From Shigella phage B2, in the sequence record OM858838: 64,000 nt of DNA; one strand, given 5' to 3'. Below, one piece after another: positions 31,442 to 39,349 of the stretch. The notes beneath the pieces were generated by a model. The model was not told where the DNA came from and did not search any database. It worked only from the letters and a program-made list of their open reading frames with translations. A program made the position numbers and the translations under genes. The first letter of the stretch is position 1; every line of letters begins with the position of its first letter.

Positions 31442-31516
31442 TAGGAATCCTCAGAAGGGAAATAACTGATATGAAGTGTACTAAAAGAAATCCCTCACTA
31501 GGAGGGATTTTGTCAT

Positions 31517-32941
31517 TTATCTGGTAGAAGTATTCACTTTTGGATTACCTAACGTATCCTCAAGGAACTTTCTAAGCTCTTGCCGTTGTCCTGTGTAATC
31601 AGGAACAACTGGCTGGAATGCAGGTACATCAGTACCAGTGATATTAGCTTTAGGAATATTCCTTTGAAACTGAACCAATGGAGCACTGGCTTGTTTCATT
31701 AAAGTATCACCTGACTTATCTACCAATCTTAATGCATCTGTTAATGCTTGCTTGGCAGCAGCATTGTTAGCAGTCTTCATAATGTCTTTAGCATTGGATT
31801 CAACATCCCCAAAAGAGATTGTTACACCATCTGCTAAACCACCCCATCTAGATGGGCTAAGAGACTTCTCAACAATGTATCCAATGGTTGCTGGAGTAGC
31901 ATTAGGATACGCTTTCTTAGCTCTAGTATAGGCTTCTGTGGCTTCATTAGGGTCTGCTAATCTACCTTGCAAACTCTTAATTACATCATCAGCAGAAGTC
32001 TTTTTATCGTCCTGTAAATTAAATACAGTTGGGTCAATACCAGAACTTAAGAATGCAGCATTAACTTCCTGTGTAGCATCAGCTTTATACTGGTCAGCAG
32101 CTTCTTTAATCAATGCACTCTGGTTCTGAATAACTGCTGTTTGAGAAGGAGTAGGAGCACCAAGAGTAGCAATGTTTTGAGCTACAGCACCAGCAACCTG
32201 ATTACCTGTAACAGGGTTAATATCATATTTCTTCTGCAACTCAGCAGCTTTAGCAGCAGGAGATTTATCTGGATTATCCAGAACCCATTGGTTTAATTCC
32301 TGACCATAAGAACGTAAATTACTACGCTCTTTATTAGCAGCATTCCTTTCAGCATTAGCAGAAGCTCTAGCAGCACGAGATTCAGCAAGCTGTGCTCTCT
32401 GTAATCCCATCTGTTCAATCTGCTGTCTACGGTTAGTCAAATCACCATACAATTGACGAGAGTCAGCAAAATTAGCTTCATTGGCTCTCAAGAACTGTTC
32501 AGCCTGATTAGGATTAGAAGCCAATAAAGAATAGAACTGATTCTCAAATGGTTGAGAAGCCTGTTCCTTCTGTGCTTGTTCTAATTGAATCTGACCTTGT
32601 AAGTCCTGTCTCAATTGTCCGGGACGAGTAGCCAATGTCTGGTTAATAGCAGACTGGTCTACAGCAGCACCAAACCTTTCTCTTAAAGCATCTGGATTAA
32701 AGTCTGCTCTTGCAGCATCTAATTGAGATGGGTCAGTAAAACCAAGTAATTGATTCTGAATATCAGCAGTATTTTGAGTACGTGCCGTATTAAAATTGAT
32801 ATTACTTAGCTGTTGATTCTGCTGAATAGGGGCTAATAAACCAGAGATTGCATCTCTGATACTTTGATTGCCAGCAAGTTGAAGTCTGGCTACTCCACCT
32901 AAGTCTGGAGCATCAATATTTCTCCAAGTAATCTGAGCCAT
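31517..32941 (-). CDS. virion structural protein (Q/N/A-rich)
   Basis: large ORF in late operon upstream of vRNAP. Confidence 0.55.
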   Translation of the reverse strand: MAQITWRNIDAPDLGGVARLQLAGNQSIRDAISGLLAPIQQNQQLSNINFNTARTQNTADIQNQLLGFTDPSQLDAARADFNPDALRERFGAAVDQSAINQTLATRPGQLRQDLQGQIQLEQAQKEQASQPFENQFYSLLASNPNQAEQFLRANEANFADSRQLYGDLTNRRQQIEQMGLQRAQLAESRAARASANAERNAANKERSNLRSYGQELNQWVLDNPDKSPAAKAAELQKKYDINPVTGNQVAGAVAQNIATLGAPTPSQTAVIQNQSALIKEAADQYKADATQEVNAAFLSSGIDPTVFNLQDDKKTSADDVIKSLQGRLADPNEATEAYTRAKKAYPNATPATIGYIVEKSLSPSRWGGLADGVTISFGDVESNAKDIMKTANNAAAKQALTDALRLVDKSGDTLMKQASAPLVQFQRNIPKANITGTDVPAFQPVVPDYTGQRQELRKFLEDTLGNPKVNTSTR

Positions 32942-32950
32942 GATTTCCCC

Positions 32951-33415
32951 TTACAGACGGTTCTTATCTAAATAGCTTTGAACGTCCTGTTCTTTACCAG
33001 CATAGTCAGAAGTACGACCTCTAATACGGTCTTCTAAAGCAGTATTATAAGTCTGTCTCTGGTTAGCCAAGTTTGTATTAAAAGCATTCTTCTGGAAGTT
33101 CAATTGGTCTTTAGCTAAGCCAAGAGTCTGCATACCATTCCATGCTTGGAACAATGAACCAAGACCTTGTAAGGTAGGAGATACTATACCCATAGATTGA
33201 AAGCCTGTAGATGGGTCAGTACCACCAAACAAAGAACGACTAGTATCGCCATTTAACCAATTAGAGAATGCTGAAAACATTCCATTATCTGCAACTGGAG
33301 CATTACCTGTACTCAAAGGAGCATTTAATACAGAACTTTGAGTAGGATTATATCCACCCGTTAATAGTTGAGCTTGGTCTGGGGCTTGATACCCAAAATT
33401 TAAATCAAATGCCAT
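32951..33415 (-). CDS. virion structural protein
   Basis: ORF in late operon. Confidence 0.5.
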   Translation of the reverse strand: MAFDLNFGYQAPDQAQLLTGGYNPTQSSVLNAPLSTGNAPVADNGMFSAFSNWLNGDTSRSLFGGTDPSTGFQSMGIVSPTLQGLGSLFQAWNGMQTLGLAKDQLNFQKNAFNTNLANQRQTYNTALEDRIRGRTSDYAGKEQDVQSYLDKNRL

Positions 33416-33417
33416 CG

Positions 33418-35745
33418 TTAACTCCTTAATGAATTTAAGTCAGTAGGTAATGTTAAAGCATAATCCACATAACTACCGATACTATCTAGTGTAACAGTAC
33501 CTGGATTCATATTTAATGTTCTGGCGAAAAATTCATCTGGTTGTTCAAACAGATTAAAGAATGCAGCATTCATTAAACCATCAATATCAATATTGGGATT
33601 TGGATTACCAAGAGCATCCATAGCATCTTCGATATCTTGCATCTGCTTCTGGTAGTTTTCTTGGTTCTTCTGCATGTCTTTAATTACATCTTGTAATTCT
33701 CTCTGTAGCTCTCCCTGAGCACCTTTTGATACAGCAGGTACTAATCCCATTACCTCATTAGCATAAGGCAACCCAGCATTGCCTGTAGAGCCATATGATT
33801 GGTATGCAGATACTGCCCCATATGCCAGCATAGCTACAGCAGCAATAAACATGATATTTGGTCCAAGGTATCTAGCCAACAAAGACATACCTACACCAAT
33901 AGCAATACCAATTGCTACTTGAGTAGCTAAGTAAATTGCTACAGCTAATGCCACTGATGTACCAGCAGCAGTTGCACCTGCGGCAGCAGCAGCTACCCCA
34001 GCAGATAATGTACCAGCAGAGTACACAGCAATTACAACAGCAATGATAATGGTTACTACTTTGAATATACCTGTCTGATACCACTTAGCTTTAGTAACTT
34101 CATATGAGTTAACCACTATATGTAAGCAGTCAAACGTCATCTGAGTACGTTGAACAATCTGCTGTGCTTCTACTACGTTTACACATAAAGGAATTAAGAA
34201 GCCTTCATTGTCTGGGTCATTCAAACTAGCTTCACCAGTGATATTTACTGAGTGTCCTTTATATACATAATTAACATGTTCTAAACCACATACCTCTACT
34301 TCTTCATATTGAGTAGCTGAAATCTGTTTACGGAAAGTAATGACAGTTACATCAGCAGTCATCTCTGTTGATTGGTTAAATTGATTAATTATCTGGATAG
34401 CAGCAGCAGGTCCAGATGTTCTAGTCACAGTTCCTTTAGGACCAATAGAACCAGTCTTCACAATCAATGATGAGTATTGGTAAGCAATAGAAATATTGTA
34501 TGGGTCTTCCTTAAGACTCAATCTGTTTACAGGAGGCTTAGGGGATATGTTTGATATGCTACCTGTATCTGGGTCAACATTCTCATTATACCAAGTTACG
34601 TACTTGGTTTTATCTGAGGGGGATACCTGAGCCAAGTACTTAAAAAACTCATGTAAGTAATCCATAGAGGATTCATATTGTGAGTTCAGTGAGATGCCTA
34701 ATACAAAAAATGCATGGTCAATATCATCAACATCAGGGTTCTCATTAATCTTATCTCCAAGCATAGTGTACTTGAGATTAAGTTTATTCATGAGAGTCTT
34801 AGATGTTTTAAACATCTCAGGGCTTACATTAGCAGGGTCAGTGTAATCAGTGTTATTTACTCGTAATGGAACTACAGGATAGTAAGCAGAATCCTTAATG
34901 AAACTATCTTGAATAACATCAAGAGTAGGATACGTACCTAAGCCAGCCTGATAAATGAAGTACTGCTTACGAGACAAATCATCAACAATGACAGTTGTTG
35001 TAATCTTGGTTTCAGTCTCAGCATCATTTACTTCAGTCACTACTGTAGTTGTAGTGATAGTGAAATGACCAAAGTTATTATCTGTAGTCTCACTAGTAGT
35101 AGTGCCATCTACATCGCCCGGTTCAAATGGTCTGGTTTCAGTAGTGACAGTAGGAGTACCGGGAGTACGTACACGGTAAATAACTTGGTAGTATTCTTTG
35201 GTGTAATCGATATCAGGGAATGATTTATTCTCTGTAAAATCTATATCAGGTGGAGTATTACTCATCTGAATAGTAGCTACACCGTTGTTATCAATTGTCC
35301 AATCAATAACAGCATTAGCATTTACACCGGATGGTGGATTACCCATGCCTCCATAGTCTGCATCCCATTGGTATTGGTCAGTAAGATACTGCTCAATCCA
35401 ATAAGATAAATCAGCTACGTTATAATCAGACATGACTATAGATACTTGTTTGCCTGCATTCAGAGATGATAATACAGCCAGCAAATCATCATTATTAGGT
35501 GTTCCATAGAAGATGGAACCATCAGGTAAACCAAGTTCATAGTAATCTCTACCGTATCTATAGACCTGTCTAATCTTGGTTCCCATTCCTTTGAGATATG
35601 CTTGTGGGATAGCTGTACCAAAGTCACTACCCTGCATTACAGAAGACGTGATTAGTTTCTGTAAAAAGTTAGTAGGGTTATCCCCTGCTAAGTTAACAGT
35701 GACTGAAGATACAGAGATGATTTTCTTTCTACTGAATAATCCCAT
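33418..35745 (-). CDS. virion protein with ~80-residue hydrophobic membrane-spanning segment (candidate ejection/channel protein)
   Basis: long Ala/Ile/Val/Gly-rich hydrophobic tract; T-rich N-terminal half. Confidence 0.55.
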   Translation of the reverse strand: MGLFSRKKIISVSSVTVNLAGDNPTNFLQKLITSSVMQGSDFGTAIPQAYLKGMGTKIRQVYRYGRDYYELGLPDGSIFYGTPNNDDLLAVLSSLNAGKQVSIVMSDYNVADLSYWIEQYLTDQYQWDADYGGMGNPPSGVNANAVIDWTIDNNGVATIQMSNTPPDIDFTENKSFPDIDYTKEYYQVIYRVRTPGTPTVTTETRPFEPGDVDGTTTSETTDNNFGHFTITTTTVVTEVNDAETETKITTTVIVDDLSRKQYFIYQAGLGTYPTLDVIQDSFIKDSAYYPVVPLRVNNTDYTDPANVSPEMFKTSKTLMNKLNLKYTMLGDKINENPDVDDIDHAFFVLGISLNSQYESSMDYLHEFFKYLAQVSPSDKTKYVTWYNENVDPDTGSISNISPKPPVNRLSLKEDPYNISIAYQYSSLIVKTGSIGPKGTVTRTSGPAAAIQIINQFNQSTEMTADVTVITFRKQISATQYEEVEVCGLEHVNYVYKGHSVNITGEASLNDPDNEGFLIPLCVNVVEAQQIVQRTQMTFDCLHIVVNSYEVTKAKWYQTGIFKVVTIIIAVVIAVYSAGTLSAGVAAAAAGATAAGTSVALAVAIYLATQVAIGIAIGVGMSLLARYLGPNIMFIAAVAMLAYGAVSAYQSYGSTGNAGLPYANEVMGLVPAVSKGAQGELQRELQDVIKDMQKNQENYQKQMQDIEDAMDALGNPNPNIDIDGLMNAAFFNLFEQPDEFFARTLNMNPGTVTLDSIGSYVDYALTLPTDLNSLRS

Positions 35746-35776
35746 AAGTATTAAAGGAGGCTTTCGCCTCCTCTCC

Positions 35777-36397
35777 TTAGTAGTTTACGCTAACCCCATC
35801 TGCTACTTTCCTCGTAAACGCATCCACCGCAGCAGTGTCGAATCCTGTTGGTAATGGCGTACCATCATCAACTGTCTTACGAGTAATCCAAGTATCAGAA
35901 ATAATCTTCAATGCCTTCTGTTCAGCATCTCTGATGAAGCCATCTTTCTGTTGTTTATACAGTGCAATCTGAGCACCAATAATACCGGTTACAGGTACAC
36001 TATCAACAGTATCTGAAATCTGTGCTTTCTCAGTCTTAACCTTCTGAGCAATAAGTTCCTTGTTAAGCTCTAACAGTTCAATCTCTTTATCAGCTTTCTC
36101 AAGTTCCTTATCAGCCAGTTCAATTTGCTTATTGGCTAATTCAATCTGAGCATTAATCAGAAGGTTATTGAGATAGGTTTTATCCTTTTCAATAAGGAAA
36201 GTAACAGCTTGTTGTAGAACTGCTGTTAACTGGCCTAAGTATACCTCTGCATACTGAGTACCAGTGATTCTTTCCATATCCCACTGAGCACTAAGATGAG
36301 CATTGGCTGCTGTCATCAACTCATCAAAGATACCAGTACCATCAACTACTTTAGTAGTCAGGTCTTCATTTGTAATTGGTTCGATAACAACAGCCAT
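35777..36397 (-). CDS. structural protein with coiled-coil segment
   Basis: ELANKQIELADKELEKADKEIELLELNKEL heptad-like repeats. Confidence 0.5.
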   Translation of the reverse strand: MAVVIEPITNEDLTTKVVDGTGIFDELMTAANAHLSAQWDMERITGTQYAEVYLGQLTAVLQQAVTFLIEKDKTYLNNLLINAQIELANKQIELADKELEKADKEIELLELNKELIAQKVKTEKAQISDTVDSVPVTGIIGAQIALYKQQKDGFIRDAEQKALKIISDTWITRKTVDDGTPLPTGFDTAAVDAFTRKVADGVSVNY

Positions 36398-37028: not shown

Positions 37029-37057
37029 AAAAAAAGAGTGGGTTTCCCCACTCTTAG
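37029..37057 (-). terminator. intrinsic terminator after putative major capsid gene
   Basis: stem agagtggg/cccactct with A7 run on + strand (U-run on - strand transcript). Confidence 0.6.
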
Positions 37058-37071
37058 TTAGTTTTAGCTCA

Positions 37072-38241
37072 TTACATAGCAGCTACAGTTTTGAACAGAG
37101 CAATCCATTCAGGACGCAGAATCAGTGAACCGTAGTACCACTTGATTGAGGTCAGGCCCATTTCACCATACGGGTCAGCATAAGACACAGTCTCAATGCC
37201 TGGTTTCTTAGTATAAGTGGTGAACTTAACAGTCTTACCATCAGTCTGGAAACCGATAGTGGTGAAGGAACCAGAACCAACACACAGCATTGGGAATACA
37301 TCATACTTACCAGAGGTAGCATAGTAACCCGGATTGGTAGTAACGGTAGCACCAGCACCTGCCCATTTCAGCATCTTAGGAACGACGATGACACGGAAAG
37401 AAGCGATGGAACCAATCTCACCTTTTAACAGGTTACCAGCATCAGCATACTGCTGTACTGGAATGAATGCTGCATTATCAAACGGGTCTTTCATCTTACG
37501 AAGCTGAAGTTCCAATTCAGAACCAATGTACAGAGCACGAGCACCTTGAATGGTACGAGTGTCAGTCATCAGAGAACCAGCAATCAGCTTAGTCTGCATA
37601 GGACACAGGTTATCGTTCAGGGTAATACCCATCTTAACCAGACCTTCGTAGGTAACTACAGTAGCAGTACCTTCACCAGTCATATCAGCATTAGATGTAG
37701 CAGCACCTGGATAACGAACAACACCTGCACCATTCAGCAAATCAATTTGCAATTGGTCTTCAGTGATTTCGTTAGCACCTTTAACTGCTTCCTGAATCAG
37801 ATGGCTATCCAGTTCTTCATCAGTATCGAAATCCATTGCTTCCTGAGTCCACTCATAGAAGAAACCGAATTTCTTGATTGAACCAATCAGTTGGATACGG
37901 GTGAAACCAACACGGTTAACTCGACCACCATTCTCAGTCAGAGCAGGCAGTTTAGATGGGATAGTACCAATGTCTTTGCTAGAACCATACAGGTTACCGT
38001 TAGCAATGGTAGCACCAGCAGCATCAATACCTTGGTCGTTAACGTTACGGTCATCTAACAGCGGTACATAGTGATACAGCTTAATTTGTTTACCCATGTT
38101 CTTAGGCATGTTGGTAACTTCAGCCAACTGACCAAAGTACATTTCTTTAGCTGCATCAACCAGTGCTTTCTTGTAGTAGTAGTCCAGACGAATCTGAGGA
38201 CCAATACTAGAAGGGGTTGTATTCGGAGCATTATACTTCAT
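37072..38241 (-). CDS. putative major capsid protein
   Basis: 389 aa, between portal/scaffold-like genes and strong terminator; position matches N4-like gene order; no motif-level proof. Confidence 0.55.
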
Positions 38242-38257
38242 AAGTTATCATCCTCGT

Positions 38258-39349
38258 TTAACGGAATTTTGATTTAAACGCTTTCTCAAACTCTTCATCA
38301 GACATAGCCAGAGGATTTAACTCTGGTTCTTTTGCCTGACCTGAAGGCTTGCTTGGACTTGCAGCTTTACGCTTTGCAGCCCTATCAGAATCTTCTTGCG
38401 TAGGAACACGAGGCTTAACTTCTACCGGCTGTTGTGGAGGTGCTTTACCAAAGGCTCCTTTAGCCGCTAACTGTTTACCTACTGCTTCATACGCCTGTAA
38501 ATCTGAAAGACCACTCAAATTCCCCAATGCTCTTTGCTTCATCATCTCAGATGCGATTGTGTCAAAGATTCCATTTGCCACATGCTCATTGATGAGTGGA
38601 ATAAGATTTGGTTCATTCGCAAGTGCACGTTTACTGTTATCATCCCATTCATCGAGAATGACGGTCATTGTCCGACCATATGTTGGAGTATGCTCAATGC
38701 TATCCAACACTGTATCTAGATTAACCTGTGCATCCGGGACAGAATAATTACCAGGTGTGTACTTAGGTTCTTCCTGTGTATTTACATCAAGTGGGTCAAT
38801 CCCACTGTCTTTAATAAGTTTGCTGATTGCTTCAGGGTTCTTCTTATCTAAGTCGATTAGATAAGTAAGTTTCTGTTCATCAAGCAATCCATTATTTTCT
38901 AACATCTTAAGAACTTTTAAAGATGGTTTCAAGGCTGCCATCTTTTTATTATAGTTCGCTCCTTGTTGCATAAGCTTAATAGCATCATCAACATTATCAA
39001 TTTGAATGTCTCTACCATTAGCTTTGAACGGACTAAATAATTTCTTAAGTTGTTCTTCAGCAGAACCAGTCTCTACTTCCTGAGTAGTTTCAGTTTCCTG
39101 ATTCTCAGTATTAGTTTCTTGGTTCTTATCTGTATTTTCTTCTGTAGTAGTTTCTTGTTCAGTAGTAGTGGTTTGTTCAACCTCTTCATTCTGCTGAGTA
39201 GTTTCTACTTCAGTTTCTTCTGTAGTCTGTTCCTGAGTAGTTTCCTGTTGCTCTTGTGAAGATGCCGACTCAAAGGTCGGCATCGGAGCTTTCAGGAAAT
39301 CAGCATCAGACATTGCAAGAATTGATTGTTCAACGCTGTTTCCAGACAT
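38258..39349 (-). CDS. scaffolding-like protein with acidic T/E/Q-rich low-complexity region
   Basis: N-terminal QEQTTEETEVETTQQNEEVEQTTTTEQETTTEE tract; located between portal and capsid genes. Confidence 0.5.
   Translation of the reverse strand: MSGNSVEQSILAMSDADFLKAPMPTFESASSQEQQETTQEQTTEETEVETTQQNEEVEQTTTTEQETTTEENTDKNQETNTENQETETTQEVETGSAEEQLKKLFSPFKANGRDIQIDNVDDAIKLMQQGANYNKKMAALKPSLKVLKMLENNGLLDEQKLTYLIDLDKKNPEAISKLIKDSGIDPLDVNTQEEPKYTPGNYSVPDAQVNLDTVLDSIEHTPTYGRTMTVILDEWDDNSKRALANEPNLIPLINEHVANGIFDTIASEMMKQRALGNLSGLSDLQAYEAVGKQLAAKGAFGKAPPQQPVEVKPRVPTQEDSDRAAKRKAASPSKPSGQAKEPELNPLAMSDEEFEKAFKSKFR

Follow-up and report, generated by a model that had tools for sequence, protein, structure and literature searches.

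Genomic context of a B2 protein with a long hydrophobic tract

Among the structural genes on the minus strand of Shigella phage B2 lies an open reading frame whose product contains an exceptionally long run of hydrophobic residues, which raises the question of where in the virion such a tract would reside, and whether it acts on a host membrane or inside the particle itself. An earlier note on this DNA had favoured the former, reading the tract as a possible membrane channel used during ejection. We examined the locus within a window of 64,000 nucleotides of the phage B2 sequence (record OM858838; the whole stretch of DNA analysed), where the gene and its closest neighbours are arranged as follows:

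35777..36397, minus strand: tail tube protein, B2 gp34, N4 gp54-like (206 aa; PDB 9d83_C Gp34, E=9e-129, full length)
35753..35774, minus strand: conserved RNA hairpin AGAGGAGGC-GAAA-GCCUCCUUU, in the 31-nt gap between the tail tube stop codon and the plug ATG
33418..35745, minus strand: the whole open reading frame (775 aa, ATG start), tail plug orthologue by homology
32951..33415, minus strand: gp52-like ejection protein (PDB 8vxq_A 'N4 gp52-like protein', E=4e-13)
31517-32941, minus strand: gp51-position open reading frame (474 aa), placed by gene order

The 775-aa product is residue for residue the NCBI entry 'hypothetical protein B2_gp33 [Shigella phage B2]' (Ithacavirus, Schitoviridae), and the DNA of the window is 99.4% identical to that of Salmonella phage FSL SP-058 (Schitoviridae, Humphriesvirinae, Ithacavirus). 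When gp33 was searched with phmmer against all PDB sequences, N4 Gp53 (9yft_FA, E=6e-52, aligned over residues 1-125, 209-379 and 469-766) and the 'N4 gp53-like protein' of phage DEV (9ze4_M, E=1e-38) were found, and no chains were matched beyond these two. The protein falls in PHROG 2220 (phrog_2220, function unknown; E=6e-251), and in BFVD, a collection of viral predicted structures, all matches at E<=1e-13 were phage proteins, several of them N4-like, which are labelled as uncharacterised, as 'TMhelix containing protein' or, in one case, as 'Secretion system effector C-like family protein'. No Pfam family reached its cut-off with gp33; the sub-threshold matches to Tetraspanin (E=0.053, 13.6 bits vs a cut-off of 32.1) and to an ATG17-like family (E=0.28) were both of the composition type and were rejected. 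By sequence homology gp33 is the Ithacavirus orthologue of the Schitoviridae tail plug, represented by N4 gp53 and DEV gp74.

The gene order agrees with this assignment. Reading along the minus strand, the portal gene is followed by two small genes, the major capsid gene (37072-38241), a 182-aa open reading frame and the tail tube gene, and then by the plug gene, the gp52-like gene, the 474-aa gp51-position open reading frame and a 3741-aa vRNAP gene; the order tube, plug, gp52-like, gp51-position and vRNAP is the same as in N4 and DEV (PMC12892993). The tail tube protein also matches DEV gp75 (E=2e-36) and N4 Gp54 (E=2e-31), and the gp52-like protein matches the N4 16.5 kDa protein (9yf4_OA, E=9e-11); for the gp51-position protein there was no match among the PDB sequences.

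The plug gene is closely packed against its downstream neighbour, as the ATG of the gp52-like gene lies 2 nt past the plug stop codon and its strong Shine-Dalgarno sequence lies inside the 3' end of the plug open reading frame. The upstream gap is occupied by the hairpin listed above, which folds as RNA with a minimum free energy of -17.9 kcal/mol (z=-3.0), is unchanged in phage S5 and contains one compensatory pair in phage Pollock, in whose record it is labelled a terminator. The hairpin was not called by a terminator scan; it was spotted by eye and is backed by folding and alignment, and it would sequester the sole Shine-Dalgarno-like run in the gap.

Correspondence with the published tail plugs

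The N4-like tail plug was identified only in 2025-2026. In N4, gp53 is a single-copy tail plug, as established by cryo-EM and LC-MS, which closes the dodecameric gp54 tube; outside the tube it consists of a globular core and a feather-shaped beta-sheet, and its residues 29-56 and 670-716 together form a 'hydrophobic knot' of short helices which acts as the cork of the tail tube (Bellis et al., Nat Commun 2026; PMC13434306). A receptor-binding sheath protein, gp65, holds the core of the plug, and the model of gp53 stops at residue 724, with the last ~160 residues lost in the lumen (PMC13434306). In DEV, the gp75 tube is closed by gp74, which the gp56-gp55-gp54 receptor-binding fibre keeps in place and which was located in the virion by cryo-EM (PMC12892993), and gp70 of phage Moo19 was found by mass spectrometry. 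The earlier note had described the B2 protein as a late virion protein with a role in genome and vRNAP release, and homology to these plugs argues for both. The name itself needs some care, since the 'plug' of PMC13492108 is a vRNAP module and not gp53.

HMMER alignment of gp33 with N4 gp53 places the published landmarks as follows:

N4 gp53 residues 29-56 correspond to gp33 residues 27-52: N-terminal part of the knot
N4 gp53 residues 670-716 correspond to gp33 residues 563-603: C-terminal part of the knot
N4 gp53 residue 724, the last modelled, corresponds to gp33 residue 611 approximately: end of the resolved model

Residues 604-775 of gp33, including a helix at 662-711 and a C-terminal motif, correspond mostly to the N4 C-terminus past the model end.

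Domain organisation of gp33

An AF2 model of gp33, built on 94 homologues, was combined with the above alignment and with hydropathy to divide the protein into the following parts, all on the minus strand:

34081..35745: core, residues 1-555 (AF2 pLDDT about 85-97)
35590..35667: two short N-terminal helices, residues 27-52, aligned to N4 gp53 29-56 (9yft_FA, HMMER domain 1)
34948..35196: Thr-rich long beta-hairpins, residues 184-266 (AF2 strands of 8-13 residues, pLDDT >90)
34060..34086: KWYQTGIFK motif, residues 554-562, nearly invariant, marking the core exit and the start of the tract
33937..34059: first part of the tract, residues 563-603, equivalent of the knot or cork (aligned to N4 gp53 670-716; hydropathy)
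33757..33936: second part of the tract, residues 604-663, mostly beyond the N4 model end (AF2 pLDDT 39-61)
33421..33756: C-terminal part, residues 664-775, an amphipathic charged helix followed by the motif ExPxxFxxRT...YVxxxLxLP

The core fold matches that of a solved plug, with 355 residues superposing on DEV gp74 (chain 9ze4_M), and the N-terminal helices were modelled at residues 27-38 and 42-51. With regard to the suggestion that the N-terminal half of the protein is rich in threonine, this is true of a patch at residues 190-260, where Thr makes up 31%, but not of the half as a whole, as the level across residues 1-555 is 10%. The Thr-rich region aligns to N4 gp53 residues 283-335, and its hairpins probably represent the N4 'beta-feather' protrusion in a shorter form. 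The amphipathic helix of the C-terminal part was placed by AF2 at about 662-711 (hydrophobic moment 1.18), and residues 664-775 are presumed to be located in the tube lumen.

Confidence of the AF2 model is poor over residues 556-775 (pLDDT 39-77), so the knot is not reproduced computationally; both knot-equivalent segments (27-52 and 563-603) are present, conserved and aligned to N4, with a pLDDT of 39-61 in the tract.

The hydrophobic tract as a probable cork

The proposal of a tract of about 80 residues within a 775-aa protein, at roughly nt 33800-34100, holds well for location and composition: Ala/Val/Ile/Gly account for 64% of residues 560-640 (nt 33826-34068), whose mean Kyte-Doolittle hydropathy is 1.76. 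The low-charge stretch is longer than was claimed, however, as it extends over residues 563-663 (nt 33757-34059), with R625 as its sole charged residue. Hydropathy of the tract is above chance expectation, the top 80-aa window of gp33 scoring 1.74, whereas 2000 shuffled versions of gp33 itself averaged 0.60 and reached 1.27 at most. Small residues spaced as [GAS]xxx[GAS] are found at 28/106 tract positions vs 24/661 elsewhere in gp33, an enrichment which fits tight helix packing, and the AF2 model contains two further helices at about 598-626 and 629-652, the former starting within the knot segment 563-603. That the tract is helical and not the buried core of a beta-helix is indicated by these AF2 helices and by the short helices of the N4 knot seen with cryo-EM (PMC13434306).

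The first ~40 residues of the tract can be read as a cork because they align to the published N4 knot, and by analogy with N4 the tract as a whole is most likely, in the first place, a cork which seals the tube lumen and not a membrane channel. A trans-envelope channel for DNA and vRNAP formed by the tract itself, as the earlier note had envisaged, would be compatible with the helix lengths, which could span a membrane, and with the location of the gene within the ejection cassette. Against this, the N4 segment is a knot corking the tube and is present in one copy, a 12:1 mismatch to the tube, while channels in planar bilayers were measured for N4 gp52 and gp51 and not for gp53, and plug density was seen in full and empty N4 particles alike (PMC13434306). 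With pores assigned to gp51 and gp52, and with the plug staying on empty particles, the channel idea is not supported and we regard it as extremely improbable.

Conservation of the tract and the C-terminal module in the plug family

The pattern seen in B2 extends throughout the family. In the alignment of 94 homologues, with identity down to 20%, all 94 have a small-residue-rich hydrophobic stretch, which starts ~8 residues past KWYQTGxFK; this motif was seen in almost every row of the alignment, and W555, Y556 and F561 are kept in >=90% of the 94 homologues. Hydrophobic character is kept over query columns 560-645, with charged residues at <=4% in columns 565-619 and at 0% in columns 635-644, while columns 575-600 are rich in small residues (45-63% Gly/Ala/Ser per 5-residue block) and conserved Gly residues occupy positions 578, 595 and 628.

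Counted from the motif to the C-terminal end, the module has a near-constant length in these homologues (217 +/- 8 aa), vs a range of 382 to 880 aa for the N-terminal part. When 1.84 billion cluster representatives were searched with a profile of the C-terminal module, 2339 matched at E<=1e-10, and in the best 150 of these 2339 the match covered the last 205-243 residues, essentially the whole profile, and ended within ~20 residues of the C-terminus. Searched against the PDB, the profile was significant for gp53 and gp74 only; coiled-coil matches to swallow, HA2, MakA and NheL1 (E>=0.026) were not significant and were discarded. This analysis of tract and module across the family was made here, and is absent from the literature that we found.

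A module of constant length which is lumenal in N4 could be imagined as a ruler or scaffold for the assembly of tube and neck, in the manner of a tape-measure protein, and a weak PHROG match of gp33 to the hydrophobic part of tape-measure proteins (PHROG 2335, E=1.2e-4, residues 574-710) points in the same direction. However, the tube proteins of B2, N4 and DEV are 206, 299 and 321 aa long while the module does not change along with them, none of the solved tape-measure proteins is significantly similar, and the literature that we found holds no evidence for a role in assembly; we therefore consider such a ruler distinctly improbable.

Residues beyond the knot

The resolved N4 knot accounts for only ~40 of the ~100 hydrophobic residues (~40% of the tract), and ~45-60 more lie within residues 604-775, past the knot equivalent. 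One reading of this surplus is that the protein serves as a membrane pilot or anchor besides plugging: the C-terminal module of the displaced plug would exit first and insert into the outer membrane by way of residues 604-663, especially 604-650, where it would hold the tail fast or initiate the gp52 pore, and the plug would then be both the gate and the first ejection protein. Over half of the tract does lie past the resolved knot, beside gp52 at the extreme end of the tail lumen, and N4 gp53 has been 'predicted to contain transmembrane domains' (PMC12642591). In gp33, segments 563-581 and 598-616 come near the membrane-insertion threshold, with a Hessa-scale sum of ~0 and ~0.5 kcal/mol, respectively, compared to >=7.6 in the rest of the protein, although this sum is crude and position-independent. 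The tape-measure match adds to this, but probably reflects composition. Hydrophobicity of the third helix (629-652) is just moderate, however, and empty N4 particles keep the plug sealed in the tube, for which the N4 authors propose that the plug stays tethered and re-plugs. On balance, insertion of the module in addition to plugging appears rather unlikely.

Membrane-like segments would also be expected if they were to hold the newly made plug in the inner membrane before assembly, or if the protein had a role related to lysis. TM-like segments do exist, UniRef names homologues 'TMhelix containing protein', and a Q98R mutation in gp53 arose in an N4 rapid-lysis screen, but rebuilding Q98R did not bring back the lysis phenotype, and once the N4 virion is mature the segment lies within the tube and not in lipid, which makes this explanation very unlikely.

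Proposed mechanism

Homology, core fold, synteny and the conservation and position of the tract were all observed here, and with these we consider it very probable that gp33 is the tail plug of B2, with its hydrophobic tract corking the tube. The cork role, the single copy and the retention on empty particles are taken over from the N4 and DEV structures and apply to B2 by analogy. In this model, one copy of gp33 would seal the dodecameric tail tube distally, and residues 1-555 would lie outside the tube as a globular core from which a Thr-rich beta-sheet protrudes. Directly past KWYQTGxFK the chain would turn into the tube, where residues 563-603 and the N-terminal helices 27-52 may pack into a knot that corks the tube base, its short helices being rich in small residues. 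We infer that the remaining ~170 residues (604-775), made up of two further hydrophobic helices, an amphipathic one of 50 residues and the conserved motif at the C-terminus, run up the lumen and adjoin the gp52-like ejection protein. The putative trigger in B2 would be receptor binding by the tail protein which holds the plug core, upon which the plug would be displaced and gp52, gp51, vRNAP and DNA could leave. In N4-like phages, the tail plug ties release of the giant virion RNA polymerase to recognition of the receptor.

Relation to the published B2 structure

In the published structural study of B2 (Subramanian et al., Sci Adv 2024; PMC11654681), the entry 'similar to N4's gp53' is given as N/A, and weak cryo-EM density at the distal tube is without an assigned protein. 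The mass spectrometry table of that study lists no gp53-like protein, but the gp52- and gp51-position proteins are also missing from it, so its sensitivity looks low and the absence of gp33 is a weak negative; the supplementary text does not mention gp31, gp32 or gp33. The homology described here demonstrates that a clear homologue of gp53, namely gp33, is encoded by B2 at the expected position. As the candidate plug of B2 and the Salmonella Ithacaviruses, gp33 would fill this gap in the published B2 structure, and it offers a concrete model to dock into the B2 map. While work on N4 had already revealed this protein, where it is located and what its hydrophobic segment does (published in 2026), the family view adds that the plugs belong to a very large family which shares a C-terminal module of constant length.

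Comparison with known systems

The hydrophobic segments of siphophage tape-measure proteins (PHROG 2335) resemble gp33 in having a Gly/Ala-rich stretch in the tail lumen, but their match is far weaker than that of PHROG 2220 and stays within the low-complexity hydrophobic zone, and was thus treated as compositional; similarity to tape-measure proteins was not found beyond this zone, nor with the C-terminal profile in the PDB. The tail needles or plugs of podophages, such as P22 gp26 and the Sf6 needle, seal the channel until receptor contact, but are trimeric coiled coils, unlike an asymmetric globular plug that is present once and has a hydrophobic cork. Needles of the P22/Sf6 type showed no similarity to gp33 in sequence or fold, and tail needles have been cited as an analogy for the plug (PMC12892993).

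Closer to gp33 is DEV gp74 (PDB 9ZE4 chain M; mBio 2026, PMC12892993), although identity is just 13-17% over structure alignments, the beta-feather is lacking in gp74, and DEV retains its plug with the gp56-gp55-gp54 fibre, whereas N4 uses gp65. The N4 plug (PDB 9YFT) differs from gp33 in length (885 aa vs 775 aa, gp33 being 110 aa shorter) and has low identity outside the C-terminal third, but the homology is full-length and the gene has the same position after the tail tube gene. The two proteins have in common the MGLFS N-terminus, the KWYQ(S/T)GIFK motif, the hydrophobic tract and the C-terminal module, and both the knot residues and the Thr-rich beta region of gp33 align with their counterparts in N4, the latter with the feather region.

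Identity of the plug in phage B2

The product of the 775-aa ORF at 33418-35745 is exactly Shigella phage B2 gp33, and at the level of sequence its homology to the N4 tail plug gp53 is unambiguous. Table 1 of the published B2 structure paper gives no gp53-like protein for this phage, and the density at the distal tube was left unidentified there (PMC11654681). The extreme N-terminus of the plug, MGLFS, is nearly invariant, with M1, G2 and F4 each present in at least 90% of the 94 sequences in the family alignment A1 (plug and homologues). The model of the N4 gp53 structure begins at residue 9 and does not include this end (PMC13434306).

35740-35745, minus strand: plug residues 1-2, start of the near-invariant MGLFS

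Predicted RNA structures in the late operon

The gap between the tail-tube and plug genes contains a conserved hairpin (stem AGAGGAGGC, loop GAAA, stem GCCUCCUUU), for which RNA folding gave a minimum free energy of −17.9 kcal/mol (z=−3.0).

35753-35774, minus strand: conserved hairpin, flanked 5' by the stop codon of the tail-tube gene (35777) and 3' by the ATG of the plug (35745)

The hairpin is identical in phage S5; in E. coli phage Pollock a single base pair differs by a compensatory change (A-U to G-C), and the Pollock record annotates the same hairpin as a terminator. The sole Shine-Dalgarno-like run of the gap is sequestered within the hairpin, and the plug ATG, which lies 3' of it, has no Shine-Dalgarno sequence of its own, whereas the gp52-like gene has a strong one (AAGGAG) 7 nt upstream of its ATG. 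The 12:1 ratio of tube to plug could be governed by this predicted hairpin. Two further strong terminator-like hairpins suggest that the late operon is expressed at stepped levels.

37034-37055, minus strand: strong terminator-like hairpin, directly after the major capsid gene
31488-31510, minus strand: strong terminator-like hairpin, between the ORF in the gp51 position and the vRNAP gene

Neighbouring genes

Between the portal and capsid genes lies a 363-aa gene; the record of the Salmonella phage FSL SP-058 (L001) labels it 'tail length tape measure protein', a name which looks doubtful in a phage with a short tail.

38258-39349 (8376-9467 in L001): 363-aa gene, with the portal and capsid genes on either side
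31517-32941, minus strand: 474-aa ORF in the gp51 position

The FSL SP-058 record has a COG0180 Tryptophanyl-tRNA synthetase note on the ORF in the gp51 position. By sequence this ORF matched no PDB chain, the N4 and DEV ejection proteins included, and at 474 aa it is far shorter than the 644 aa of N4 gp51.
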